In this document: positions 3,782 to 53,299 of the stretch, one piece after another
Position numbering within the stretch: position 1 is the stretch's first letter
How the letters are laid out: every line of letters begins with the position of its first letter
Source: Candidatus Kaiserbacteria bacterium RIFCSPLOWO2_01_FULL_45_25
Lineage (GTDB): Bacteria > Patescibacteriota > Minisyncoccia > Phycocordibacterales > UBA918
NCBI GenBank assembly: GCA_001781415.1
Contig: MFLT01000003.1
Span: 6,672-70,671, forward strand
Length of the DNA: 64,000 nt
Direction: 5' to 3'
Translations under genes and position numbers: made by a program
The notes under the pieces: generated by a model
What the model was told of the DNA's origin: nothing
The model's database searches: none
Seen by the model: the letters and a program-made list of their open reading frames with translations, nothing else

Positions 3782-4025
3782 CAGAAAATGACCACTCCTT
3801 TCAGGAGTGGTCATTTTGTGCCTCGGGAGCAAGCAAATAATTTTGCTTGCGTAGGGGGTCGAAAACCGCAGCGATGCCGTAGGCGAGCGAGGTGGGGTCG
3901 AGAGTACTTAGCAGAATCTGAGCTTGCGAAAGATTATGCTTAGTAACTCGTGACCGACCCATCTCCAATTATATATCTGTGACCGACCCCTGTCTTTCCA
4001 CCACCTGACCGACCCATCTCCAGCC
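3782..4025 (+). repeat. tRNA-linked composite repeat element, copy A
   Basis: Terminator palindrome aaaatgaccactcc..ggagtggtcatttt, then an inverted copy of the tRNA 3' end (gtgcctcgggag). A second palindrome and inverted T-arm (gtagggggtcgaa) follow. Then the conserved core ccgcagcgatgccgtaggcgagcgaggtggggtcgagagtacttagcagaatctgagc...tacttagtaactcgtgaccg. It ends in three degenerate direct copies of gaccgaccc(a/c)tctcc, matching the tRNA T-loop/3' end. Confidence 0.6.
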
Positions 4026-5713: not shown

Positions 5714-5990
5714 AAAATGAAAAACCAAAGCGTCAAGCTTTGGTTTTTCTAATTTTGCGATGGCCCACGAGGATTCGAAAGACGGAGCCGGGGACCCTTT
5801 GGGCCGGCGAGTCCGGGGAGAAAGTTCTTAACGAGCTTGCGAGTTTAGAAACTTGACCCCGAATCATCGTGGGATTAAATAGAACAAATATACTTAGTAA
5901 CTCGTGACCGCATGCGGGCCTCGCGGCACCTGCTAGATTGTGAGCATAGCGAGACAATATAACTTGGTGACCGTCAGGACGAATCCTCAT
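5714..5990 (+). repeat. tRNA-linked composite repeat element, copy B (two tandem units)
   Basis: Terminator palindrome aaaaaccaaagc..gctttggttttt, then an inverted tRNA 3' end (tgcgatggcccacgaggattcgaa). The core variant ends ...acgagcttgcgagtttagaaacttgacc and is followed by a direct copy of the tRNA 3' end (ccgaatcatcgtggg). A second unit ends ...atatacttagtaactcgtgaccg. Confidence 0.55.
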
Positions 5991-9784: not shown

Positions 9785-10648
9785 CTACGGCCTGTACACA
9801 ACATCTATATGGTCTCTCTCAACTGCGTAGGTAGCATTTCCATTTACATAAGTTCTTGTGCCGTCTCTCCAAGGTGCTCCAGGAGTAAAATTATTTTGAA
9901 CATAACTAACCAAAGCAGGATTATTGTTGGTTCTTAAGTCTAATTTATATCCATTAGAGTGGGAGTAAGTACCGTTTTGATGAGTTCCACCAGTACCTTC
10001 AGTAACCACAATATTACAACCACAAGATCGGTTTAGTGCAATTACCCCATCAATCACATGTGGTTGAATTCCTTCAAGCCTAGCTCCTGGTTTTACACCA
10101 ACACCAGCAGCACTTAATCTGGATGCGGCTTCTGCTTGTGTTAGCGGTGTACCAGGCGCACTAGGAGCCGAAGGGTCAGTTGGTACTGTTCCAGCCGGTT
10201 CAGGATTTGTCTCAACGTACTCATGTGGCACTACTTGAGTAGTACACTGCACTTGTGACCATGGTCCCCAGCCAACTAACTCACCCATGGCTGCACCACT
10301 AGAGCCACCGCCCACCAAACCTTTCATAACCGTATCAACAATCAACCAAGCGGCTAGCACAATAATAATTCCAATAAGAGCATTCTGGAACTTTGATTTA
10401 GCAGCATCAAGAGCTGACTGATTTCCACCTGATGTCACGAGTCCAAAGCCAGCGACCACCATCATAACTGCAAACAGTATGAACAAGATGCCGATAAGCC
10501 AAACAATGATGAGGTTAATCATGGCCACCAACTGACAAGACCCACAGTCTGCACCACTACAAGTCACGAGTCCGGTTTGTGCCAAAACGGCATCAGTTGG
10601 CAAAAACATCAGAGCAAAAGCGATAACAGCAACTGGTATAAATTTCAT
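9785..10648 (-). CDS. TrbC/VirB2-like (CPR 'T4SS-pilin'-type) membrane domain fused to a C-terminal M15-peptidase-like domain
   Basis: Signal peptide, Cys pair and two TM helices, like the pilin paralogs at 31-32.7 kb. The C-terminus, NRSCGCNIVVTEGTGGTHQNGTYSHSNGYKLDL, resembles the SxHxxGxAxD motif of zinc D-Ala-D-Ala carboxypeptidases. Recognised from memory, not searched. Confidence 0.5.
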   Translation of the reverse strand: MKFIPVAVIAFALMFLPTDAVLAQTGLVTCSGADCGSCQLVAMINLIIVWLIGILFILFAVMMVVAGFGLVTSGGNQSALDAAKSKFQNALIGIIIVLAAWLIVDTVMKGLVGGGSSGAAMGELVGWGPWSQVQCTTQVVPHEYVETNPEPAGTVPTDPSAPSAPGTPLTQAEAASRLSAAGVGVKPGARLEGIQPHVIDGVIALNRSCGCNIVVTEGTGGTHQNGTYSHSNGYKLDLRTNNNPALVSYVQNNFTPGAPWRDGTRTYVNGNATYAVERDHIDVVYRP

Positions 10649-10649
10649 A

Positions 10650-11168
10650 TTAAATAATTATATTACAACTCTGGGTTAACGGCGTTGCTGTTGAGCACAT
10701 ATATGTATCTGCCGGCAATGTAACCAAGTTATCTAAAGGTACTGCAAAACTACTACGTGGTTGTGGTGCTGGCTGAGTTGTACAGATGATGTCATTCCAA
10801 ACACCGTAATTTTCTTGTCTGAGCAGGAAGCGCAAGCCAGTATCCACTAGCATCCACGCTGCCAAAAATAGTATGTACCCAACAATAGCGTTACTGATTA
10901 GTTTACGAGCGTTTGTCACTGCTGATAGATCACCAGCCGCTACCACCATCCTGAGTCCAGCCAGCATAATGAGAATAACCACTATAATTCCCATAACTGT
11001 CGCCAACCAGCCACCAACCGTCGCCACTAGTGCTCCAACATGGCACATTTGGCATGGCTCTTCACCTATCCCACCACACGGAACCAACCCGGCTGCAGCC
11101 ACCACAGACGGAGAAAGAAGAATGAGAGTAGGCAGGAAGCTTTTCCACATATAGGTATATACTAGCAT
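10650..11168 (-). CDS. TrbC/VirB2-like pilin-type membrane protein; the ORF-track start at 11420 is unlikely because it runs through tRNA-Tyr fragments
   Basis: From MLVYTYMWKSFL: signal peptide, Cys-containing segment, two TM helices. Adjacent and co-oriented with the 9785..10648 gene. Confidence 0.5.
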   Translation of the reverse strand: MLVYTYMWKSFLPTLILLSPSVVAAAGLVPCGGIGEEPCQMCHVGALVATVGGWLATVMGIIVVILIMLAGLRMVVAAGDLSAVTNARKLISNAIVGYILFLAAWMLVDTGLRFLLRQENYGVWNDIICTTQPAPQPRSSFAVPLDNLVTLPADTYMCSTATPLTQSCNIII

Positions 11169-11230
11169 GACCACTCTTTGAAAATCAGGCAAGATGTGGT
11201 AATTTGTATGCCACATACGGCATACCGTAT

Positions 11231-11270
11231 TAATCGCGTCGGTACTCAAGCGGTCAACGAGGGCAGACTG
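11231..11270 (+). repeat. Partial 5'-half duplicate of tRNA-Tyr (first ~40 nt up to the anticodon)
   Basis: gcgtcggtactcaagcggtcaacgagggcagactgta is identical to the 5' part of the full tRNA-Tyr gene 200 bp downstream. It diverges exactly at the anticodon loop. Confidence 0.55.
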
Positions 11271-11431
11271 TATGACTTGCGCTTTGCGCACCAGGAAGTC
11301 ATGCTGGCATAGGTGTCTCCCACCGGAGACTCTGTCTAAAGTCGCTAGACGCGACACACCAGTAAATCTTGCAGATTTCCAGTCTGCTGATATAACTGAT
11401 AGGACCAAGTGATACAACAAAATAAATAAAT

Positions 11432-11514: not shown

Positions 11515-11935
11515 CGCGTATAAAAAACCGTCCAAGCACAAGCTTGGGCGTTTTTTATTGCGTGCGCCGGAGCAAGGCATCTGCATGCCTTGCGTGAGGG
11601 ATTCGAAAAGCGCAGCGATGCCGTAGGCGAGCGAGCTGGGGTCGAGAACACTTAGTAGATTATGAGCGAAGCGAAATAATATACTTAGTGATTTGTGACC
11701 GAATCCCTCCCCTCCCGGAGCACATTAGAATTAAAAACACCAAATGGTGCTTTTTCTAATGTGCGCCGGGAAGTGAAATGTCTGGGAGACATTTCATGTG
11801 GGATTCGAAGCCCGATTGAGCTAGATTGAAAGCAAAGCGCATCAATCTAGCCAATTGGGGTACTGGTCGTGTAACGACCGAAATTCCCTCCCGGCGCACG
11901 CGTTAAAAATCCTTGCTCAACAAGGTATTTTTATA
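11515..11935 (+). repeat. tRNA-linked composite repeat element, copy C (tandem, with two direct repeats of the tRNA-Tyr 3' end)
   Basis: Terminator palindrome, then inverted tRNA 3' end (tgcgtgcgccggag), a second palindrome and an inverted T-arm (cgtgagggattcgaa). Core gcgcagcgatgccgtaggcgagcgagctggggtcgagaacacttagtag...tacttagtgatttgtgaccg|aatccctcccctcccggagcaca. A second unit ends ggtcgtgtaacgaccg|aaattccctcccggcgcacgcg, and a terminator hairpin closes the element. Confidence 0.6.
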
Positions 11936-23577: not shown

Positions 23578-23626
23578 GGTGTAAATTATGTAAATCTTTG
23601 CTATACTGCCCGCACTTAATTATTAA

Positions 23627-23722
23627 ATGAACAAACGAGCACGCCAGTGCGACTATTGTGAATTTATACCGTTGCCTCGGCAGATTCGACCCCGCAGGGA
23701 GAATATGCTGGCGGCAATCGGT
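23627..23722 (+). repeat. Dispersed stem-loop element, family R, copy a (in the infB 5' leader)
   Basis: tgaacaaacgagcacgccagtgcgactattgtgaattta...cggcagattcgaccccgcagggagaatatgctggcgg. Confidence 0.55.
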
Positions 23723-23752
23723 AAGTGTTAATCTAAAATTTATTACAAATAT

Positions 23753-26036: not shown

Positions 26037-26250
26037 CAAACAAAAATCATCAGCTTTGGCTGATGATTTTTGTTTGTGCCGAGAAAGAAAGCAAACTACT
26101 TTGCTTTCGGTGGGACTTGAAGCTCCGGACGATATGCTCTGCTCTGTGAAGAGCAGAGCATAAGGAGGAGCCGACCAAGAACGCGAGACTGTTTTATGAG
26201 TAAAGCGAAATAAAAGAGCCGCGATTCTGGGTCAAGTCCCCCACCCCATA
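26037..26250 (+). repeat. tRNA-linked composite repeat element, copy D (second core variant)
   Basis: Terminator palindrome acaaaaatcatcagc..gctgatgatttttgt, then inverted 3' end ttgtgccgaga, a second palindrome and an inverted T-arm ggtgggacttgaagc. Core variant tccggacgatatgctctgctctgtgaagagcagagcataaggaggagccgaccaagaacgcgagact...atgagtaaagcgaaataa...gccgcgattc, followed by a direct T-arm copy tgggtcaagtccccc. Confidence 0.55.
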
Positions 26251-26854: not shown

Positions 26855-26927
26855 CTCAGCTGGTAGAGCAGCTCCCTCTTAAGGAGAAGGTCCAAGGTTC
26901 GATCCCTTGAGGGGGCACATACGTAAA
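26855..26927 (+). tRNA. tRNA-Lys(CTT)
   Basis: Acceptor gccctct/agggggc, anticodon loop cuCUUaa, T-arm caaggttcgatcccttg. Confidence 0.75.
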
Positions 26928-27190
26928 GCAAAACACCCTATCCACATGGATAGGGTGTTTTGCTTTAGCATCTGCCCTGCGGCAGATGCGTGCGTATGTG
27001 CCGACCGCAGCGATGCCGGAGGCGAGCGAGGTGGGGTCGAGAGTACTTAGCAGAATCTGAGCTTGTGAAAGATTATGCTTAGATAAAACTTTCTGGGAGA
27101 TAGTTTTATCGTGACCACAAAAGGAGATACCCCTTGAAGGCAAGACTAACAATTATACTTAGTGATTCGTGACCACACGTGCCCCCAACA
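26928..27190 (+). repeat. tRNA-linked composite repeat element, copy E
   Basis: Palindrome aaagcaaaacaccctatcca..tggatagggtgttttgcttt, then inverted 3' end tgcgtatgtgcc. Core ccgcagcgatgccggaggcgagcgaggtggggtcgagagtacttagcagaatctgagcttgtgaaagattatgcttag, with an inserted 28-nt palindrome ataaaactttctgggagatagttttatc. A second end follows: tacttagtgattcgtgacca|cacgtgccccc. Confidence 0.6.
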
Positions 27191-27249
27191 GTTAAATACC
27201 CGTATCTCTCGCCATATTTATATTTTATGCTATACTCTTCCCCACACCT

Positions 27250-27331: not shown

Positions 27332-27495
27332 CAGTAATAAAACCGCCTCTGGCGGTTTTATTGTGCGCGGGAGAGCAAAGCGCTAATGCGCTTTGCGTAG
27401 GACTTGAAAGCCGGAACGATGCCGGAGGCGAGTGAGGCGGGGTCGCGGAAAATCTCTGAAAGAGATTTATCTGTGACCAAGTCCTCTCCTTGCTT
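27332..27495 (+). repeat. tRNA-linked composite repeat element, copy F (short core)
   Basis: Palindrome aataaaaccgcc..ggcggttttatt, then inverted 3' end gtgcgcgggagag, palindrome caaagcgc..gcgctttg, inverted T-arm cgtaggacttgaa. Core agccggaacgatgccggaggcgagtgaggcggggtcgcgg...atctgtgacc|aagtcctctcc, a direct copy of the tRNA T-loop/3' end. Confidence 0.6.
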
Positions 27496-34601: not shown

Positions 34602-34672
34602 CCTTAGAGACTCCGGCCTGTGTAATAAAAAACCACCCAGGTGAGTGGGTGGTTTTTAAATCTCTATCTAAT

Positions 34673-34942
34673 ATCGTCTATGGTCATTACCTTTAATGAC
34701 GCCTTAGAGCGCGAGTCCTAGTGAATTAAGTAAAACAAGGAGCCGTCGGCGACTATGCTTTTACTTATGCAGACGCAATGTTTGTTTCGACCCCGCAGGG
34801 AGAAACAAACATATGCGGCCTGCACCCAAGGGAATGGAAAATCAAGGACTTAGTTCGTAATATGCCCTTTGGAGATATCGAATTTAACATCGTCTATGGC
34901 AATCACCTTCAGCGAAGTTTTAGAGTTCGAGTCCTAGCAATT
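34673..34942 (+). repeat. Dispersed stem-loop element, family R, copy b, flanked by ~50-bp imperfect direct repeats
   Basis: DR-left atcgtctatggtcattacctttaatgacgccttagagcgcgagtcctag (34673-34726). Core taagtaaaacaaggagccgtcggcgactatgcttttacttatgcagacgcaatgtttgtttcgaccccgcagggagaaacaaacatatgcggcctgc. DR-right atcgtctatggcaatcaccttcagcgaagttttagagttcgagtcctag (34889-34942). Confidence 0.55.
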
Positions 34943-35006
34943 TGCCCTAGGAAGGGGCAAATTGAGGACAAAATTCGCCATAGTCGCTACGCTCGTTGGC
35001 TCATTT

Positions 35007-37475
35007 TTAAACGAACACCACGCTGGCAATTGCATCACCATCACGCATCTTCATGACGCGGACTCCTTGGGTCTGGCGACCGAGGGTTGGGACGTCCTTG
35101 AGTGGAAGCTTAATCACCTGCCCCTTCTGACTCATGATAACCAACTCTCCATCAGCTCGCTCATCTTCTTTGAGCACAATTCCGCAAACAATCTGTCCTG
35201 TCTTACTGGTCAACTTGGCGGTCTTGATACCTGATCCACCACGCTTTTGGACTTTGTATTCTTTGGCTGGAGTAGTCTTACCATACCCGAGCTGGGTCAC
35301 AATGAGGACTTCAGTCTTCTTATCATCTTTCTTAAATACATCGGCTGAGACAATGTGGTCTCCCTTACCGAGCTTCATACCAGTTACTCCAGCGGCAGTA
35401 CGACCCATTTCACGAACATCATTTTCCTTGAAACGGATTGATTGCCCTAGCAGTGTCACAAGTGAGACCTCGTCTCCCTTACCAACGAACTTGGCAGCAA
35501 TGAGTGAATCGTCTTCTTTGAGGGTGATGGCAATGAGTCCACTGCGACGAACATCCTTAAAGGCAGAAGCGTCACTCTTCTTGGCTACACCGTTCTTAGT
35601 AATCATCATGAGACCCCATTCACCAGCCCATTCCTCCTTGCGAACTGCTAGCACTGACGTAATCTTCTCTTCTTGTGTCATTGAAAGGAAGTTCATAATG
35701 GACTTACCTTTAGTGGCCTTACGTCCTTCTGGGATTTCAAACATCTTACTTTGGTACACCTTACCCTTATCAGTGAAGAAGAGGAGATCACTGTGAGCTG
35801 AAGTAGTAAGTAGTGTAGTAACCACATCTTCTTCCTTGGTGTTTAGGTCAATCACCCCTACCCCACCACGCTTTTGAGTTTTGTATTCTTCTGGGTTGGT
35901 ACGCTTTACGTAACCTCCAGCCGTGAGTACAAGCACACTTTCATCGTCAGGTATGAGGTCTTCTTGAGACATTTGCTTTACACCACCTTTTACGATTTTT
36001 GTGCGACGGTCATCGCCATACTTCTCGGCAATTTCGAGCAAATCATCTTTTACAATCTTCATCATCTTTTCTTTACTCTTGAGAATAGACTGAAGTTCCT
36101 TGATGAGCTTTTGCACTTCAGCTAGTTCGTCTTCAATCTTCTTGCGTTCAAGACCAGCCAGCTTCTGCAGGCGCATATCAAGAATCGCCTGGGCTTGGAT
36201 AGCTGAGAATTTAAATTCTTTCATCAAAGCCGCGTGTGCAGTCGGTACGTCCTTAGCAGCACGAATGAGCTTGATAATCTTGTCGATATGATCAAGCGCT
36301 TTCTTAAGACCAAGCAAGATATGCTCGCGGTCTTGAGCTTTGGTGAGGTCATACTGAGTGCGACGACGGATAACTTCAGCTCGGTGTTTTACATACTCCT
36401 CGAGGATCACCTTGAGTGAAAGAGTCTGTGGAATTCCGTCTACGAGCGCCACCATGTTGTAGTGGAAGGTATCTTCGAGCTGAGTGTGCTTGTACAGTTT
36501 ATTTAAAATAGTTTGTGGCTGAGCACCAGTCTTAAGTTCAATCACGATACGGATATCAGAGGTTGACTCATCGCGCATGTCACGAATACCTTCAATACGC
36601 TTGTCGCGTACCAAGTCTGCAATCTTAACCTGCAAGTCAGCCTTGTTGACGCGATATGGAATTGAAGTGATGACAATTGAAAACGCCCCACGCTTATCTT
36701 CCACAATCTCTGCCTCACCACGAACTACTACTCCGCCCTTACCGTTAGCGTAAGCGTGCGCAATGTCTTTTTGATTGAAGGCTACCGCTCCCACAGGGAA
36801 ATCTGGTCCTTTCACAAACTTGAGCAAGTCGTCTGTAGTAGCGCCTGGATTATCAATGAGGTGCGCCACTGCCGCCGCCACTTCCCGAAGGTTGTGTGGA
36901 GGGATGTTAGTCGCCATACCCACCGCAATACCAAGCGAACCGAGCAAGAGGAGGTTTGGTACAGCCGCTGGGAGAACCACTGGCTCCTTCTTGGTGCCGT
37001 CAAAGTTTGGCCGCCAATCAACTGTATCCTTCTCAAGATCGCGCAGTAGCTCTTCAGCTACCTTAGACATTTTGGCTTCAGTGTATCGGTAGGCCGCAGC
37101 TCCGTCTCCGTCGATTGAACCAAAGTTTCCTTGTCCAAGTACGAGTGGGTAGCGAGTAGCAAAGTTTTGTGCCAACTTAACCATAGCTTCATATACAGAG
37201 GCGTCTCCATGAGGGTGAAGACTACCAAGAACGTCTCCAACTACTGTCGCAGATTTCTTAAACTTAGCCGTTGAGGTAAGTCCATTGAGTCGCATCGAAT
37301 AGAGGATGCGTCGGTGTACCGGCTTTAGACCATCACGTACGTCAGGCAGGGCTCGCGACGTAATAACCGACATCGCATAGTCTAGGTATGCGGTCTCCAT
37401 TTCGCTCGTGATACTTTGAGCCACTATTCCGCGTGGTGAGGCTGGTGTTTCGTCAACAATTGTCTTTTTCGGCAT
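35007..37475 (-). CDS. gyrA: DNA gyrase subunit A
   Basis: Active-site region and QRDR ([20 protein letters not shown]), GyrA-box/beta-pinwheel C-terminal repeats, 822 aa. Confidence 0.95.
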
Positions 37476-39150: not shown

Positions 39151-40242
39151 ATGTCAGATTCTACAAACGTAGAAAACACTGGAGCTATGCAAGCGTATGC
39201 TGCAAGTATCCCAGCTGCCCCAAAGGAAGGACAATTAATAGACGGAACCGTCTCAGCTATCGGCCGAGCACGGGTTTTTGTAGACCTACCACCATTTGGT
39301 ACTGGTATCATCTACGGCCGTGAGTACATGAACGCGCGAGACATCCTTCGCAAAGTTTCAGTTGGAGACGGAATTGCTGCCAAGGTAGTAATGTCAGAAA
39401 ACGAAGACGGCTACATCGAACTTTCACTTAAGGAAGCTCGCCAAGCTCTCATCTGGGCTGATGCTGAAGAAGCAGTTAAGCGTGGTTCTATCCTCAGTCT
39501 TGAGGTTAAGGAAGCCAACAAGGGCGGACTTATCATTGAATGGCAAGGTATCCAAGGATTCCTTCCAGCCTCACAGCTTTCAGCTGACAACTACCCACGC
39601 GTAGCTGATGGCGACAAGGACAAGATCCTATCTGCGCTTAACGACCTCATTGGTAAGCACCTCTCAGTAGTAATGATTACTGCCGACCAGAAGGAGCACA
39701 AGCTCATCTTCTCTGAAAAGGGACTCCAAGAAAAAGAAGAGAAGGAAGAAAAGGTTGGTAAGTACGAAGTCGGAGATGTTCTTACTGGAGAAGTTACTGG
39801 AGCAGTTGATTTCGGTATCTTCGTTAAGGTGGAGCAAGGTCTTGAAGGTCTCGTTCACATTTCTGAACTCGACTGGGGTCTCGTTGAAGACACTCGTGCC
39901 CTCTACAAGGTAGGAGATCAAGTAAAGGTTAAGGTAATTGAAGTGAAGGATGACAAGATTTCTCTTTCAATCAAGCAACTTAAGGAGAACCCATGGCAAG
40001 AAGCAGCCAAGAAGTTCAAGAAGGACCAAATTGTTGACGCGGTAGTTATCAAGTACAACAAGCATGGTGCTCTAGCTTCAATCGAAGAAGGAGTAGCTGG
40101 ACTCGTCCACATCTCAGAATTCGAGAAGGAAGAAATGCTTAAGTCTACACTTTCACTTGGAAATGTTTACAAGTTCAAGATTACCCTCTTTGAACCAAAC
40201 GACCAACGTATGACACTTTCATACAAGGAAGCAAATACATAA
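39151..40242 (+). CDS. rpsA: 30S ribosomal protein S1 (four S1 domains)
   Basis: Repeated S1 OB-fold modules (GTVSAIGRARVFVDL; GEVTGAVDFGIFVKV; DAVVIKYNKHGALASI). Confidence 0.85.
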   Translation: MSDSTNVENTGAMQAYAASIPAAPKEGQLIDGTVSAIGRARVFVDLPPFGTGIIYGREYMNARDILRKVSVGDGIAAKVVMSENEDGYIELSLKEARQALIWADAEEAVKRGSILSLEVKEANKGGLIIEWQGIQGFLPASQLSADNYPRVADGDKDKILSALNDLIGKHLSVVMITADQKEHKLIFSEKGLQEKEEKEEKVGKYEVGDVLTGEVTGAVDFGIFVKVEQGLEGLVHISELDWGLVEDTRALYKVGDQVKVKVIEVKDDKISLSIKQLKENPWQEAAKKFKKDQIVDAVVIKYNKHGALASIEEGVAGLVHISEFEKEEMLKSTLSLGNVYKFKITLFEPNDQRMTLSYKEANT

Positions 40243-40340
40243 GTAGAAACAAGGAGTGCGAAGCGCGACTATGTTTTACTTAGGCAGACACAACCTTAGC
40301 TTCGACCTCACAGGGAGAAGATAAGGTATGTGGTCCGCCA
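40240..40340 (+). repeat. Dispersed stem-loop element, family R, copy c
   Basis: taagtagaaacaaggagtgcgaagcgcgactatgttttacttaggcagacacaaccttagcttcgacctcacagggagaagataaggtatgtggtccgcc. Confidence 0.55.
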
Positions 40341-40442
40341 GGTACTCGAAATTATCATCCTAAGTAATAATTCGAGCGTAGTAGTAATACTACAGAAAAA
40401 GCGACGGTGGCCTTCGGCCACCGTCGCTTTTTGTTGTCATAG

Positions 40443-41039: not shown

Positions 41040-41092
41040 TGTACATGAATATCTAGACGAGTAACAAATCTTATTAATTCACTTTGCAGGCC

Positions 41093-41162
41093 ACTACAGT
41101 CGACCGCTCCCTGCGGGGTCGCGGCTCGACTAAGTGTCTGACTAAGTTCAAAATAGTCGACG
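41093..41162 (-). repeat. Dispersed stem-loop element, family R, copy e (inverted; on the pth 5'-leader side)
   Basis: Reverse complement: cgtcgactattttgaacttagtcagacacttagtcgagccgcgaccccgcagggagcggtcgactgtagtgg. Confidence 0.5.
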
Positions 41163-41230
41163 TTTTACGTCTCGTTTTTTCACTCATTGTTTTTAGTTTT
41201 TTCTTAAAGTATAATAGTGAAACTTTTGCT

Positions 41231-46639: not shown

Positions 46640-46765
46640 GACACTGCCGGCCGCAGCGAAAAGTGAACAAACGAGACGCAAAGCGTCGACTATTGTGAAC
46701 TTATGCAGAAGTAATATTATTTTCGACCCACAAGGGAGAAAATAATATATACTTCCTGCAAGTAA
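46640..46765 (+). repeat. Dispersed stem-loop element, family R, copy d (~100 bp upstream of trxB); begins with the core-like ccgcagcga
   Basis: gcagacactgccggccgcagcgaaaagtgaacaaacgagacgcaaagcgtcgactattgtgaacttatgcagaagtaatattattttcgacccacaagggagaaaataatatatacttcctgc. Confidence 0.55.
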
Positions 46766-46868
46766 GTCCCTCGACAATACCTCTCCCCAAAACCCCACCG
46801 GCCCCACGCCGATGGGGTTTTGCTGTTAACTCCTCTTGCGGTACAATAGGCTCCACTAACACATAATA

Positions 46869-48271: not shown

Positions 48272-48702
48272 CATCGGTATTAAACAAACGACCACTTCTC
48301 AGGAAGTGGTCGTTTGTTTAATAGAAAGCAAAGAGTTTTGCTTTCGTACCGATGTGACAGTCGGAGCACTGTGAGCTTGCGAACAAGCGAGACGGGGTCG
48401 AGAGTACTTAGATTTTTATGAGTAAAACGAAATAAAAAGCTTAGTAACTCGTGACCACAGGAGTGACCACCAATGTTGCCTGCGGCCTGCTGTGAGGCCG
48501 CAGCGATGCCGGAGGCGAGCGAGGCGGGGTCGAGAGTACTTAGCAGAATCTGAGCTTTGCGAAAGATTATGCTTAGATAAAACTTTCTGGGAGATAGTTT
48601 TATCGTGGCACAAATGCAGAACTGAGTGGAGCGAAGACCTTATTTAACGAGCTTGCGAGCTTAGAAACTTGACCCCGATTCTCCGTAGGGTCACACTTTT
48701 TT
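48272..48702 (+). repeat. tRNA-linked composite repeat element, copy H (two tandem cores)
   Basis: Two palindromes, then the inverted 3' end gtaccgatgtgac. Core 1 ...gagacggggtcgagagtacttag...atgagtaaaacgaaataaaaagcttagtaactcgtgacc. Core 2 ccgcagcgatgccggaggcgagcgaggcggggtcgagagtacttagcagaatctgagc..., with the same inserted 28-nt palindrome as copy E. Ends ...gcgagcttagaaacttgacc|ccgattctccgtagggtcaca (direct tRNA 3'-end copy), then a T-run. Confidence 0.6.
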
Positions 48703-48774: not shown

Positions 48775-49437
48775 ATGAAAAATATATTCATTGTAGTTTT
48801 ATTGATACTACTATCGGGGGTAGGAGTATTTATTTATACAAATGTAAAAAATAATGATTTACCCTCAAATGAAAAGGTTACCTACACTAATAATTTACTT
48901 GGTTATTCAGTAGTTTTACCAGATGGATATGAAGTGGCTGAAGAATATACAAAATTTGTTAATCAAGACCTTGAATTAGGATCTATAACATATGAAGATA
49001 AAGTTTTTGATATCCAACGAGCAGAAATTATTGTCTTTTCTCCTGACACAATAGAAGAGCAGCTAGAGACAATAAATAGAGCATCATCATATTCAAACGA
49101 AGGTAAAATGCTTACTCAAGAACCAAACTACATCTATATTGAACCAAATCCAGTTTCACCAGAGATAAGAAATCGTTTAGAGGAGAAACTACAAGAAATA
49201 AACCCAAAAGATGAAGATGGATTCCGTCTAGCTAATACACCTTTAATGTTTAGTGCGGAAAAAGTACAAGAAAGAATTATAAAGACAGTTTTGCTTGAAG
49301 AGACAAAAAAATACTATGTCAACGAAAGTTACAATGATACTGGATATCAAGAGGTGTATGGCTTAGACATTGTTGTTCCAAATAATAATGAGGCTAAACA
49401 AATTGTAGCCAAGATGATAGCTAGTCTAGAATATTAG
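48775..49437 (+). CDS. Hypothetical membrane-anchored protein, strongly AT-rich
   Basis: N-terminal TM helix. Lys/Asn/Glu/Ile/Tyr-rich composition, unlike neighbouring genes. Confidence 0.45.
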   Translation: MKNIFIVVLLILLSGVGVFIYTNVKNNDLPSNEKVTYTNNLLGYSVVLPDGYEVAEEYTKFVNQDLELGSITYEDKVFDIQRAEIIVFSPDTIEEQLETINRASSYSNEGKMLTQEPNYIYIEPNPVSPEIRNRLEEKLQEINPKDEDGFRLANTPLMFSAEKVQERIIKTVLLEETKKYYVNESYNDTGYQEVYGLDIVVPNNNEAKQIVAKMIASLEY

Positions 49438-49561
49438 TAATTGTTATCTACTTCCCAAACCCCTCCAAGACTTCATCTCCTTAACAAGTTGGTTCCAATT
49501 CGTAATACTTAGTGTCACAACGGGTACAGAAAAAGCGGGACGATTCTCCGTAGATTAACAT

Positions 49562-49590
49562 TGACAAACAGCACATAACGTGCTATTGTG
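49562..49590 (+). promoter_or_regulatory. Sigma70-like promoter
   Basis: TTGACAaacagcacataacgtgcTATTGT. Confidence 0.45.
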
Positions 49591-49650
49591 TCAACAATGT
49601 CCGCCCAGAAAGCGACAGTGTCCCTATCAACACCACCTGGAGAAAGTCTC

Positions 49651-49959
49651 ATGGAACTCGTCAAAGTCTCCTCTCCCGTTTCCCGTGTCCGCAAGTTCGT
49701 GTCGCGCGTGCATTGGCCGAGTCGTCGGCAAGTCGCTAAGCGTGGTTGCGACCCCTATGTCGAATTCGACATCCGTGGAAGGACCTACCGCGCGCACTTC
49801 ATCGCAACGGCCGACATGAAAACGGAGCGTACGCACAGCGTGTACGTGACGGCGCAGGGGCCGAACATCAAGGTCTCGTCAATCGACGACTCGGGCCTGC
49901 AGGTCGGCAAGGTCTTTGTGGTCTACGAAGACCCTTTTGCTCTCCTGAAGTACGCCTGA
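49651..49959 (+). CDS. Hypothetical small protein, strongly GC-rich (start at MELVKV)
   Basis: RBS ggagaaagtctcATG. Followed by two hairpin terminators (49967-50030, 50075-50110). Confidence 0.4.
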   Translation: MELVKVSSPVSRVRKFVSRVHWPSRRQVAKRGCDPYVEFDIRGRTYRAHFIATADMKTERTHSVYVTAQGPNIKVSSIDDSGLQVGKVFVVYEDPFALLKYA

Positions 49960-50127
49960 ACCAACAGCACTGAGCACCAGCTCGCAAAAACAACTCCTAG
50001 GAGTTCGCTTCTGCGAGCTGTTTTTGTTTATAAAATCTGAATTGCTTCTATAGCCGGATAACTGTTACCTGTAGCATTTAAAAAACCGTCCCGAAGGACG
50101 GCTTTGTGCTTGTGGCGGCAGGAGCCA

Positions 50128-50544
50128 CTAGGACGGGAACTTATTGTACACATCTAGTTTTATATCCAAAACCAGACTATTTAATTTGAGAAACATATCC
50201 TCTATCACTTCCTCCGCTTCGTCCAAGCTTTGGTGAATAAGCGTAAGACGTTGACTCATCAAAGTGGTGATTTGTTCGCTGGTCAAATTCTCATCAGCCG
50301 AGTCAACCAAAGACTGGCACATCTCTTTTTCCAGCAAAGAAAACTCGGTCCTAACCAAGGCGAGATAATCACTCTGTCTGATAAAAAACCACTCCTCAAG
50401 CCTTTGCAGCCTGTCCAAAATGGCCACCAACTCCTGTTTGTATGTGGCCTTTCCTTCAAATAGATTTTTAAGCAACAACTCCTCGATCAGGAGGAAGTGC
50501 CGGGCAAAAAACACAAATTCCTTAAGAGTGAATTTGTTGTCCAT
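50128..50544 (-). CDS. Hypothetical alpha-helical protein (start MDNKF at 50544)
   Basis: RBS ggaggtgattATG. Preceded in its leader by the conserved 22-nt motif. Confidence 0.5.
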   Translation of the reverse strand: MDNKFTLKEFVFFARHFLLIEELLLKNLFEGKATYKQELVAILDRLQRLEEWFFIRQSDYLALVRTEFSLLEKEMCQSLVDSADENLTSEQITTLMSQRLTLIHQSLDEAEEVIEDMFLKLNSLVLDIKLDVYNKFPS

Positions 50545-50575
50545 AATCACCTCCTGTTTTAGGTACCGCTCCAAA

Positions 50576-50597
50576 ATGGGAGTTCTAAACCTATTAA
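50576..50597 (-). promoter_or_regulatory. Conserved 5'-leader motif TAGAACTCCCATTTTGGAGCGG (minus-strand sense), copy 1
   Basis: Identical 22-mer in the leaders of 50128..50544 and 52026..52481. Contains a small CUCC/GGAG hairpin. A TTGAAT-N17-TTTAAT promoter lies just upstream. Confidence 0.5.
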
Positions 50598-50674
50598 ACA
50601 CTTATCTTCCCTATAATTCAAATTATTAAAATCAAAACAGCTCGACTTTAGTCGAGCTGTTTTTTCTATTTTCT

Positions 50675-51904
50675 CTACAACCCTTTAGCTTTATACCCAG
50701 CAATTTCTTTCTTCAACTCCACCATTTTCAACTCCCGATTAATCATCATCTTATTCATTTTTTCTGTCTCTTCTAAGCGTTTTTTCAAAATTTCCCCAAT
50801 CTCTCGCACTTTTTCATTTGATTCATCTTCCGCTTTTTCGGCGGCAACAATTTTATCGAGCAGACCATTTATAGATGATGCCAGCACCCCAATTTCATCA
50901 TTAGTCCCTTCTTTGATTCGAATAGATAAATCTTTTTTATCACCTATCTGCCTCACTTTCTTTTCTAGTCTAGTGAAGCGGGCCACCACAAAGAGTTCAA
51001 GAAGCACAATGAGAATTAGTCCGAAAAAGATTAAGAGAGCGCTGGTAGCAATCATATAAAAAGACAGAGTGGCCTTTCCTTGCATATACACGTCTCTAGT
51101 CTCTTCTATCTTTAAAGTGATTAGTGGTTTCCCATAATAATCATTGATTACTTTATATGCAGCGATAGACGCTTCAGACAGTGGACTAACGAACTGATTA
51201 TTCTCAGTTGTTAGAGACTGCTCAGCAGCTATAACATCAGCAGGAGAATCTGGACTTCCGTATGGAAAGACTTCCAAGTTAAGATGAGTGAGAGCACGAA
51301 TCTTGGCAATAACGTTTTTATCTATAAAGGTTCCGAACGTAAGGCTGCCGTGGATTGGACCTTCCCCGGCACTCGTTAATATCGGGAGTGAAGTAAATAA
51401 AAATGGCCCGTTAGTGAATTGCAAAATACCAGAAATAGAACTCTCAGTATCAGGATGAGTTATCAGTTCACGATGTGATTCAAAGTATTCTCTTATTTCG
51501 GTGGAGTCTACCTCTTCCTCAGTCTTACTATCAATGACTCGTATAAACACGACACCACCTTCTGGATTAGCAAAAATCATCGAGTTTATTTCAAGATTGG
51601 CTATGCTGTATGACTTGAGATTGGAGTCGTAATATTCTTGATTTAAATCAGTAACAAATTGATAAGTATCGTCCCAAGTTGCCCAGTCCTGCAGCTTTAC
51701 AGTTAGCTGAGGGAAAAGGTTTTTAATAGCATCATCAGCTCTTTCCAGATCCTTAATTATTTCTTTGGTTTCAATATTTGAATAACTTTGCGGATGGATT
51801 TTAGAAGAAACTACGTAAAGAGTTGAAGCTAGACACAAAATAGATACCAAAATAACCAGAATCATTTTCTGGGTAATAGACAGATCCTTTAGTTTTTGAA
51901 ACAT
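50675..51904 (-). CDS. Membrane sensor with a periplasmic domain, HAMP domain and short C-terminal coiled coil (no kinase, MCP or GGDEF output domain)
   Basis: TM1 (ILVILVSILCLASTLYVV), ~250-aa extracytoplasmic domain, TM2, HAMP-like segment VVARFTRLEKKVRQIGDKKDLSIRIKEGTNDEIGVLASSINGLL, then ~70 aa of coiled coil. Confidence 0.55.
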   Translation of the reverse strand: MFQKLKDLSITQKMILVILVSILCLASTLYVVSSKIHPQSYSNIETKEIIKDLERADDAIKNLFPQLTVKLQDWATWDDTYQFVTDLNQEYYDSNLKSYSIANLEINSMIFANPEGGVVFIRVIDSKTEEEVDSTEIREYFESHRELITHPDTESSISGILQFTNGPFLFTSLPILTSAGEGPIHGSLTFGTFIDKNVIAKIRALTHLNLEVFPYGSPDSPADVIAAEQSLTTENNQFVSPLSEASIAAYKVINDYYGKPLITLKIEETRDVYMQGKATLSFYMIATSALLIFFGLILIVLLELFVVARFTRLEKKVRQIGDKKDLSIRIKEGTNDEIGVLASSINGLLDKIVAAEKAEDESNEKVREIGEILKKRLEETEKMNKMMINRELKMVELKKEIAGYKAKGL

Positions 51905-52025
51905 ACAATTACTATTGAGTATATAACTTTGCCTTATTAAGACAACGATTTATATACACCTATCAATCACTTAAATATTAAAATTGAAAACAGCTCGACC
52001 AAGGTCGAGCTGTTTGATTTGAGCT

Positions 52026-52481
52026 TCAGCGCCGCTTCTTGCGAGCTGGCAATGAAACGCCGTACGTGATCGTGAGTTCACAAGTGATCTTACTGACCAT
52101 TTTAATGTATACGGCCTGCACCTGCATAACACTTGCTTCAAATTCGGCTGCTTGAACCGCCCACTTCGATACGTCAGCAGTCAGAGCTTTTTTCTGCTCT
52201 TGAAGACCCAAGTCAGGTGGGCGAATCTTTTCTGTAAAAGCAGTCCAGTGAATATTATCTACTGCAGCCAAGAAGAGCTCGTCTTGCCGACTCACGTAAT
52301 CAGCCAAAATTGATTCAAAGCCAGATTCCAGCTCCGTAACAAAATCAGTGCAGGCGTTACGCACAATGAGTGCCTGTATGTACTGAGCTTCTTTGGGGAG
52401 TACTTTTATTTTATCGTTGGCTGCCCTAAGCGCAGCCAGGCGTTGTTTCCAAACACTAAAATACTTGTCCAGATTAATCAT
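52026..52481 (-). CDS. Hypothetical alpha-helical protein (start MINLDK at 52481)
   Basis: RBS ggaggtgtgtgATG. The leader carries the conserved 22-nt motif. Confidence 0.5.
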   Translation of the reverse strand: MINLDKYFSVWKQRLAALRAANDKIKVLPKEAQYIQALIVRNACTDFVTELESGFESILADYVSRQDELFLAAVDNIHWTAFTEKIRPPDLGLQEQKKALTADVSKWAVQAAEFEASVMQVQAVYIKMVSKITCELTITYGVSLPARKKRR

Positions 52482-52506
52482 CACACACCTCCGCGGTTTC
52501 AAAGAC

Positions 52507-52528
52507 CCGCTCCAAAATGGGAGTTCTA
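52507..52528 (-). promoter_or_regulatory. Conserved 5'-leader motif TAGAACTCCCATTTTGGAGCGG, copy 2
   Basis: Same 22-mer as copy 1. A TTGACA -35 lies upstream. Confidence 0.5.
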
Positions 52529-52599
52529 CACTAATTAGATTCCTGTCCAGGTACTATGTCAAGAAAAAAGTCGAGCATAACGCCCGACTTTTTTGAGGA

Positions 52600-53010
52600 C
52601 TACATCCCAAGCAGTAGTTGCCGCTCATTTGATACCAGCTGCCTCAGCTCGGCAATCTTATCAGCAATCCGCTCGCGCGTCTCAGTCACTTCAGCCTCCA
52701 GACCAGATAGCTGGGCGGCAAAGACAAACCTTGACTCAACTCTGTTGGTAGACTTGTCCATTTGGAGCAACTCGCCCTCTGACTTTTGCATAAGCGAAAA
52801 TGAAGCCATCACTTGGCCAAGCTCCCCGAGCATCATTCGCTCAGCTGAACGCAAGACCAAGTCCAGACTATCAAGTTCGTAACGAATACCAGCACGCAAT
52901 TTGAGCTTGTCCTCCTCTGGCAAACCAAGTTGCAACAAGAGGCGCGCGGTACGCTCACACTGATCTACTATCAGGCGAGCCAGAGTTTCTATCACATCAA
53001 GTGAGTTCAC
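52600..53010 (-). CDS. Hypothetical alpha-helical protein (probable GTG start at 53010; the ORF-track start at 53073 abuts a terminator hairpin and has no RBS)
   Basis: RBS ggaggtgtgctGTG. Confidence 0.4.
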   Translation of the reverse strand: MNSLDVIETLARLIVDQCERTARLLLQLGLPEEDKLKLRAGIRYELDSLDLVLRSAERMMLGELGQVMASFSLMQKSEGELLQMDKSTNRVESRFVFAAQLSGLEAEVTETRERIADKIAELRQLVSNERQLLLGM

Positions 53011-53299
53011 AGCACACCTCCGTAGGTTAAGACAATCTATGACTATATAACTCCTAAAGGCAATGTTGGTCAAGCTTGCTTATATTTGAAAATAGGCGCC
53101 AATGGCGCCTATTTTCAAACAGCATGAACTAATTAAGCCACAATCCCACCCCAGTACTTACCAACCGTAAATGCAAAACAAAGTGTAATAGCCCAAATAA
53201 CGAGTTGATCTGTAGTTATATTTTTCATAGTGATTATTTAAAAACTCTACTACTATTCTACACCGCCTAGAGATATACCCCTTCACAGATATAAACAGA

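Follow-up and report, generated by a model that had tools for sequence, protein, structure and literature searches.

The stretch of DNA analyzed here, 64,000 nucleotides of contig MFLT01000003.1 from Candidatus Kaiserbacteria bacterium RIFCSPLOWO2_01_FULL_45_25 and referred to throughout as the window, contains a small dispersed repeat, R, at a density of one copy per ~11–13 kb. A first-pass annotation of the window proposed five related stem-loops, and these are confirmed as genuine copies (a to e) of an undescribed, two-domain folded repeat of ~105 nt; all five were found, within 1–7 nt of the coordinates first given. A covariance model built from them (R1) recovers its five source copies at 94–111 bits, plus a partial sixth, copy f; an improved model (R2) was made from the larger alignment A3 described below. 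The loop pattern CGACYYNRCARGGAG with no more than one mismatch occurs four times versus 0.17 expected, and copy d has the slight variant CGACCCACAAGGGAG. Weak model matches at 53026–53123 and, on the minus strand, beside tRNAs correspond to ordinary terminator or tRNA-flank hairpins.

Copy a (23625–23723, forward strand; 97.6 bits with R1 and 91.3 bits with R2) occupies the spacer that separates a class-V aminotransferase gene (reverse strand) from the divergent infB (forward strand), with its 3′ end 30 nt before the infB ATG, its CGACTAT motif at 23650–23656, and its apical CGACC...GGGAG at 23687–23701. Two copies are located downstream of gyrA. Copy b (34727–34824, forward strand; 99.7 bits with R1) is antisense to the gyrA-methyltransferase transcription unit, and is composed of a 5′ domain (34727–34767) and a 3′ hairpin (34768–34824), with AAGGAG at 34737–34742, CGACTAT at 34750–34756, and the apical motif at 34788–34802. 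Copy f (34929–35009, reverse strand; 34.2 bits with R1 and 38.4 bits with R2) begins at the gyrA TAA stop and represents a variant, the f-type, in which an R-type 5′ domain is joined to a different hairpin, GUCCU..CCUUCCUA..AGGAC. Copy c (40240–40339, forward strand; 94 bits with R1) supplies with its bases 1–3 the TAA stop of rpsA (S1), and is followed by a tail hairpin and then by the common rpsA/pth terminator at ~40396–40432. Copy e (41086–41186, reverse strand; 100.7 bits with R1) occupies the 5′ leader of pth, on the downstream side of TATACT, a conserved –10-like sequence, and copy d (46661–46760, forward strand; 111.1 bits with R1) lies between the ftsZ terminator and trxB, with a terminator-like hairpin at 46800–46819 on its 3′ side.

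Fold, covariation and range of the family

The 5′ domain (45 nt) consists of helix P1 (UAAGU.../...ACUUA), tandem G.A or Watson-Crick pairs, a short helix P1b, an internal loop (5′-AAnGA / 5′-GACUAU) and a hairpin, P2; the tandem G.A is present in copies a, d, e and f, with Watson-Crick pairs instead in b and c. The 3′ domain is a ~60-nt hairpin, GCAGn...nCUGC, with the tip C-GA-CCY-CNNA-GGG-A-G. About 30 nt are invariant in the family consensus and are clustered in loops and junctions, and the 5′ end of R, at the start of P1, begins U-(A/G)-A and is thus rich in stop codons. The extent first described for the element is too short, as the conserved "5′ block" noted at that time is the folded domain itself, with P2 also covarying. 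Within that block CGACTAT is indeed invariant; the remainder varies, and TTTTACTTA is found in copies b and c only.

The window copies are strongly folded, with stability z-scores of −3.95 to −6.37 per copy and none of 200 shuffles equally stable, and RNAalifold predicts 36 pairs for the five full copies, 21 of them with compensatory double changes; the stem pairs quoted in the first-pass annotation are correct. A larger set was assembled by surveying one genome per GTDB species with the exact pattern CGACTAT-N27-35-CGACCYNNNAGGGAG, which requires the loops and so misses divergent members. The survey yielded 81 stretches in which R1 confirms 91 matches at E<1e-3, all of them in ~34 metagenome-assembled genomes (MAGs) of Patescibacteria with Paceibacteria/Parcubacteria, Nomurabacteria, Saccharibacteria or Elulimicrobium labels. 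R1 confirms none of the 14 stretches from other phyla, which are chance matches. Judged by its own proteins, the window itself belongs among Paceibacteria-like genomes. The survey pattern constrains the loops and leaves the stems free, so that stem covariation in the 91-copy set is unbiased.

In alignment A3 (91 sequences) standard pairing is present in 93.5% of cells versus 68.8% when shuffled, 32 of the 36 pairs have changes on both sides, and the covariation score is 0.60, compared with 0.18 for shuffled alignments and 0.05–0.10 with partners slid by 1–3 columns. Wobble pairs are kept in some columns (A-U 53/G.U 27; U.G 50/A-U 20; C-G 46/U.G 32), with totals of 152 for GU+UG versus 52 for AC+CA. 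By a measure that is independent of the alignment, 72 of 75 copies have the more stable fold on the sense strand (mean −41.0 kcal/mol, compared with −35.2 for the complement). The covariation is thus very strong as well as strand-specific, and together with the sense-strand stability bias it shows that selection acts on one particular strand in its single-stranded form, RNA and single-stranded DNA (ssDNA) both being compatible; the selected structure proposed from the first five copies is borne out in the larger family.

No Rfam family matches R. At gathering thresholds Rfam 15 reports nine tRNAs and nothing else in the whole window, and at E≤10 no plus-strand match over copy b exceeds 10.4 bits. 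A literature search, partly poorly targeted, returned no description of such an element in Patescibacteria, and there are no R matches in the phage and plasmid collections IMG/VR, PLSDB and INPHARED.

Gene context and related genomes

The genes next to R are unrelated housekeeping genes with no common function, and clustering of 248 flanking open reading frames (ORFs) returned only housekeeping genes and site hot spots; no conserved flank is present around R copies, and the left flanks of R insertions are varied. The four orientation classes are about equally frequent over all copies (18, 18, 13 and 13), and co-directional gene pairs, the only ones informative in this test and here defined by crude longest-ORF gene calls, give sense to antisense ratios of 10:15, 6:14 and 4:13 when the ORF threshold is set at 120, 150 and 200 aa, respectively. 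Relative to local GC skew there is no replication-strand bias (34:44). Approximately 18% of copies overlap the stop codon of the upstream ORF on the same strand. No conserved promoter precedes R (positions −20 to −1 are unconserved, and a promoter scan predicts none for copy b), and there is no U run after the 3′ hairpin, positions +1 to +4 being A/G-rich. The unconserved upstream sequence, the lack of a U run, the unrelated neighbors and the orientations argue against a leader or riboswitch, a terminator, and a small RNA (sRNA) gene with its own signals. An intrinsic terminator is ruled out by the absence of a T run after the hairpin, and separate terminators follow copies c and d. The cis-regulatory leader or non-coding RNA initially put forward as a candidate is not supported either, as orientation is random or antisense-leaning, neighbors are unrelated and orthologous sites in relatives are empty.

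Among other genomes, a sense R copy is present in the groES-groEL spacer in three different ones (L066 1700–1960, L079 5900–6120 and L025 4100–4300). In L066 and L079 the groEL ribosome-binding region and the first four codons (ATGGCAAAAC...) are duplicated on either side of R.

Syntenic relatives were collected as contigs with Pth homologues and by an rpsA-anchored metagenome scan (80 loci, 838 kb, RpsA 61–99% identical), all of them MAG or metagenome contigs. Synteny is retained for gyrA-methyltransferase at ~30 loci, for ftsZ-trxB at ~19 and for rpsA-pth-lepB at more than 50, and yet these 838 kb include only three full R copies by either model, plus ~10 f-type matches. Copy e is absent from L082, L083 and L084 (Pth 84–91% identical) and from L087, in which Pth is ~93% and RpsA 99% identical to the window, with ~90% nucleotide identity over aligned columns; the relatives have a ~45-nt native leader instead, and the flanks can be aligned to the base. 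The gyrA-methyltransferase spacer is ~55–115 nt in the closest syntenic relatives checked, as opposed to 405 nt in the window. Relatives whose contigs extend across the sites of copies b, d, e and f (up to ~30 for the gyrA site) do not have these copies, and with synteny kept and the sites empty or short, all four are lineage-specific and the R family is patchy, with local expansions.

The convergent rpsA-pth spacer is occupied differently in different genomes. The window and L089 have R directly after the rpsA stop, and in the window the final three rpsA codons have given way to the insert, which also provides the stop; L087, L083 and L082 have a different R copy directly after the pth stop, on the opposite side of the same conserved terminator. 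This bidirectional rpsA/pth terminator (40396–40432 in the window, and in L083, L087 and L089) is almost unchanged, while its flanks turn over through R insertion.

Insert ends, nested copies and the hairpin tip

The insert comprises R and a variable tail of ~8–57 nt, with the 5′ junction 0–5 nt from P1; the 3′ tails are partly common within subfamilies. Flanking duplications were sought by comparing 120-nt flanks of 74 copies with a null of unrelated flanks. In L057 a perfect direct repeat (34/34) restores the final 11 codons of a convergently oriented gene, and in L032 a 45-nt duplication rebuilds 14 codons; others are of 28 nt (L029) and 19 nt (L009). In the window, copy b and its 57-nt tail are bracketed by a 56-nt direct repeat (34666–34721 and 34882–34937; 77% identity, spacing 216) that looks like an aged target duplication, and the right arm of which overlaps the 3′ arm of the copy f hairpin on the other strand.

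Copies are also found in tandem (L067, L006, L051 and L069) and nested within one another: L083 holds a full copy within the 5′ arm of another, and L049 an inverted 5′ domain within P1. A regular-expression search for separate modules gave 40 5′-only and 19 3′-only pieces versus 86 full copies, with some of the 3′-domain-only pieces being degenerate full copies. The f-type is a family of its own, sharing the 5′ domain but with the hairpin GUUCCnAAUUU...CUUUCCUA...AAAUUGCUGGAAC (alignment A5). Once in L016 and twice in L065, the apical loop of R is interrupted exactly after GGGA by an f-type element, a related variant of 80 nt, with no duplication, and an R copy in L036 is broken at the same GGGA^G point; from these events the conserved hairpin tip is a recurrent point of breakage and joining.

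Several further arrangements accompany these copies. Another repeat, ...TATTGAAAACTTAATGTTGGCG(T/C)GAGAAATGGGATGGGG..., absent from the window and sometimes in tandem with a terminator-like hairpin (L008 4250–4600; L023 770–782; L058 5483–5797; L077 1210–1636; L067 400–660 and 1580–1840), has repeatedly received R and f-type insertions at AATG^TTGGCG (AAAACTTAATG^TTGGCG). In L067 (150–1900, reverse strand) two near-identical R-R tandem pairs, as ~190-nt direct repeats, bracket a ~900-bp segment with two small opposite-strand ORFs that by eye are like an antitoxin and a RelE-ParE-type toxin, an arrangement that resembles a small R-flanked cassette. A short module, TTGACCTAATTTTT, recurs beside 5′-domain-only pieces and beside a hairpin-less GAG-CGACTAT (L028 262–340; L068 6500–6620, reverse strand; L077 1640–1700; L006 ~1820), which suggests further module types in this repeat ecosystem.

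Mobile repeat or host RNA

We see about an even chance that R is a mobile repeat of Patescibacteria that is non-autonomous and depends on its structure, with a folded single strand that would be read by a trans-acting enzyme. We infer mobility from the fold with its covariation and strand specificity, its independence of the orientation and function of genes, sites that are filled in some genomes and empty in others, nested copies and the constant junction at the hairpin tip; beyond these observations and the patchy distribution, active transposition and a role of the loops as protein recognition sites are interpretive steps. Of the functions initially considered, the recognition hairpin of a mobile system is the one that fits, given the presence and absence among relatives, the nested copies and the junctions at GGGA^G.

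By this account, one strand, as RNA or ssDNA, would fold into the 45-nt 5′ domain and the 60-nt hairpin, with stems free to vary as long as they pair and loops presumably fixed through being read by a trans-acting enzyme or protein. New copies, in either orientation, would insert between genes and at gene ends, with a precise 5′ edge at the base of P1 and a 3′ edge carrying the variable ~8–57-nt tail, and part of the insertions would duplicate 19–56 bp of target. The stop-rich 5′ end (U[A/G]A) could let copies sit and survive on ORF ends, and the apical loop itself would be a point of breaking and joining, with the f-type inserting exactly at GGGA^G. The precise insertions at GGGA^G would fit an ssDNA intermediate, by analogy with the hairpin-directed insertion of IS200/IS605 and of IS1397 in REP, and the variable tails and long duplications would fit an RNA intermediate with a mechanism like that of short interspersed nuclear elements (SINEs).

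A number of observations weigh against mobility. Convincing flanking duplications are present for only five of the 74 copies, with none detectable for most, and the 55-nt "duplication" seen in L008 is better explained by a different repeat present as tandem units, every one of which has an insert. Their lengths are variable (19–56 bp), with no short target duplication of fixed length, and no terminal inverted repeats are present, the clean insert ends in L057 (TAAAGAAAATAAGG... and ...GAATACACGCTACT) not being inverted; a classical miniature inverted-repeat transposable element is ruled out on both counts. Pfam searches of 29 window proteins and 10 encoded beside R clusters found no transposase, reverse transcriptase or recombinase, and no copy has an ORF between the 5′ and 3′ domains as an autonomous parent might. 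Identity among window copies is only ~60–75%, such that no recent burst is visible, and with the closest relative analyzed (L087) ~90% identical in nucleotide sequence, gain is not separable from loss at individual sites. Five of the six window copies are sense to flanking transcription units, the orientation test relies on the crude gene calls noted above, and sites recur, at lepB-pth (window, L074 and L031) and groES-groEL (L025, L066 and L079). This recurrence and the conservation of the loop sequences over many MAGs would also suit an RNA useful to the host.

These last points belong to the main rival, which we consider unlikely: that R is an RNA module, useful to the host, of untranslated regions (UTRs). 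Transcribed within mRNAs, it would bind a conserved Patescibacteria protein or block or direct RNases and would thereby govern how stable the mRNAs are and how they are processed or translated where genes end and in leaders; it would spread by duplication and recombination. The RNA-like fold with its conserved G.U pairs and tandem G.A agrees with this, as do the positions of copies a and e in 5′ leaders downstream of –10-like boxes, of c and f at stops before terminators, and of d between terminators; the copies on stop codons of co-oriented genes and the predominance of sense copies in the window point the same way, and the presence of R at recurring sites in distant genomes, namely groES-groEL (three sense copies), lepB-pth and the 3′ end of rpsA, is readily accommodated. 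However, antisense copies equal or exceed sense copies in co-directional gene pairs (15 vs 10, 14 vs 6 and 13 vs 4), relatives spanning the sites lack R, which is rare throughout the 838 kb from related loci, the outer fold is lost where copies are nested, and the neighbors have no common function. It is highly unlikely that the copies are instead paralogous, independently transcribed genes for trans-acting sRNAs; the compact, stable and conserved fold is of sRNA size, there are several paralogues per genome, copy d is bracketed by terminators, and AAGGAG and GGGAG resemble Shine-Dalgarno motifs, but the promoter and U run expected of such genes are lacking, many copies overlap stop codons or nest in each other, and R is absent from most relatives.

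A different course, in our estimate quite unlikely, is spread through RNA as a SINE-like retroposon, in which a source copy would be transcribed into its 3′ flank, self-cleavage would possibly set the 5′ end or cut GGGA^G, and a reverse transcriptase would copy the RNA into staggered target nicks. The strand-specific fold with wobble pairs, the precise 5′ boundary and variable 3′ tail that is partly common within subfamilies, the long target duplications of variable length, the 3′-domain-only fragments, and the ~30 invariant nt in loops and junctions, as in small ribozymes, are all in keeping with it. Set against these, the proteins scanned include no reverse transcriptase nearby, the 3′ end is neither A-rich nor otherwise conserved, some "truncated" copies are degenerate and not 5′-truncated, no known ribozyme family in Rfam 15 matches R, and f-type insertion at GGGA^G without duplication looks closer to DNA cleavage directed by a hairpin. 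The IS1634/IS1549 type of DNA transposase likewise produces long duplications of variable length, and no SINE-type retroposon is known from bacteria. It is an unlikely, if bold, version of the mobile reading that R and the f-type together represent a new bacterial mobile element moving via a folded single strand, perhaps RNA, and would be the first bacterial SINE-like retroposon or a small ribozyme-bearing element, with the GGGA^G tip as both recognition and landing site and with duplications that rebuild gene ends.

Comparison with known systems places R closest in general form to several small repeats. It resembles ERIC/IRU of enterobacteria, BOX of pneumococci and REP/BIME in its size (~100 nt), intergenic or UTR location, occurrence in either orientation and compensated imperfect palindromes, and in its modular clustered copies, repeat-in-repeat insertion and patchiness among relatives. 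It differs from them in having two domains with ~30 invariant loop and junction nt, in spanning many Patescibacteria lineages and not one genus or family, and in a 5′ end that carries stop codons and often overlaps ORF ends; REP/BIME, moreover, is a 20–40-nt palindrome with a GTAG head, unlike the ~105 nt, two domains and U(A/G)A start of R, and no gene for a RAYT (Y1 transposase) or RAYT-like protein was seen among the 39 proteins scanned (from 64 kb of this genome and 8–21-kb pieces of others). IS200/IS605, its miniature derivatives and IS1397 insertion into REP share with R a strand-specific fold that is kept while stems vary, the absence of terminal inverted repeats, and, for the f-type, precise insertion without duplication at a hairpin tip (GGGA^G). 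Unlike the IS200/IS605 (HUH/Y1) elements, R has long duplications at some copies, no lagging-strand bias (34:44), and a long P1 and a P3 without counterpart, and no tnpA was found in the proteins scanned beside R or in the window. Integron attC sites are likewise recognized by structure, fold from one strand, lie at gene 3′ ends and have a crossover inside a conserved part of the hairpin; R differs in lacking a GTTRRRY core, cassette arrays and a nearby intI, and in its random orientation and extensive conserved loops. An attC identity is ruled out, as the consensus has no RYYYAAC/GTTRRRY core and copies in either orientation are scattered among housekeeping genes. With SINE-type retroposons and the IS1634/IS1549 group R has in common variable duplications of tens of bp, variable 3′ tails and partial copies, and it differs in that no reverse transcriptase or transposase partner was found and that it has neither an A-rich tail nor inverted repeats.

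The window also contains a second repeat family, T, linked to tRNAs, and a final alternative, which we regard as barely plausible, is that R is derived from tRNA or mimics a T-loop and forms one system with T. The loop had been reported as identical to the T arm of tRNA-Leu(CAA), and the identity itself stands, over 9 nt (TTCGACCCC), though the segment is not a T-loop: the two U's of UUCGA lie within a helix and covary with the AA facing them (UA 72/CG 8 and UA 67/GC 15), its C is in every case (85 of 85) paired with G, and GA/A forms a small internal loop. T-loop mimicry is ruled out by this covariation, neither ARAGORN nor the tRNA model RF00005 calls R, and the 9-nt identity is regarded as coincidence. 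Copy d is, as first noted, preceded by the start of the T core, which abuts its 5′ end as 11 nt (GGCCGCAGCGA, 46644–46654, forward strand); R and T are both present in the window and in the DAOLBU01 genome, and each has a small hairpin flanked by GA dinucleotides. The proposal that the two families are modules of one system nonetheless comes down to this one adjacency and co-occurrence in two genomes, with no homology by covariance models: R models score T elements at only 17–22 bits, on the wrong strand and via generic hairpins, and T is tied to tRNA 3′ ends whereas R is not.

The T family is nevertheless real. Its core of ~100 nt, CCGCAGCGATGCCGKAGGCGAGCGAGGYGGGGTCGAG...ACTTAGCAGAATCTGAGC..GCTTAG..GTGACC, follows five of the nine window tRNAs, in units ordered as tRNA, terminator hairpin (with the tRNA 3′ acceptor strand as outer stem), small hairpin, inverted T-arm copy, core, and direct copy of the tRNA 3′ end. 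Elements lie at 3783–4000, 11516–11800, 26919–27200, 27333–27480 and 48273–48700, with reduced forms at 5714–5900 and 26038–26130, and the family is also present in L042 at ~6026 (reverse strand). Rfam has no family match for the T region and gives generic hairpin matches only. T looks like a miniature element targeting tRNA 3′ ends. Elsewhere in the window, two adjacent ORFs with type IV secretion system (T4SS)-pilin domains are located at 9785–11420 (reverse strand), and a segment of lower GC (0.38–0.42) at 48775–53073, with several ORFs lacking Pfam matches beside a CHASE4/HAMP protein, may be an accessory region.

The genomes of Patescibacteria are tiny and streamlined, and yet the R fold recurs in dozens of their lineages. 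If R is a host RNA, the 32 covarying pairs out of 36 would place it among the orphan RNA structures with the best support. If it is mobile, it would represent an agent of change not recorded before: by providing stop codons, displacing native leaders and switching from one side of a common terminator to the other, it would remodel gene ends, leaders and operon spacers across a huge and poorly known branch of the bacteria.

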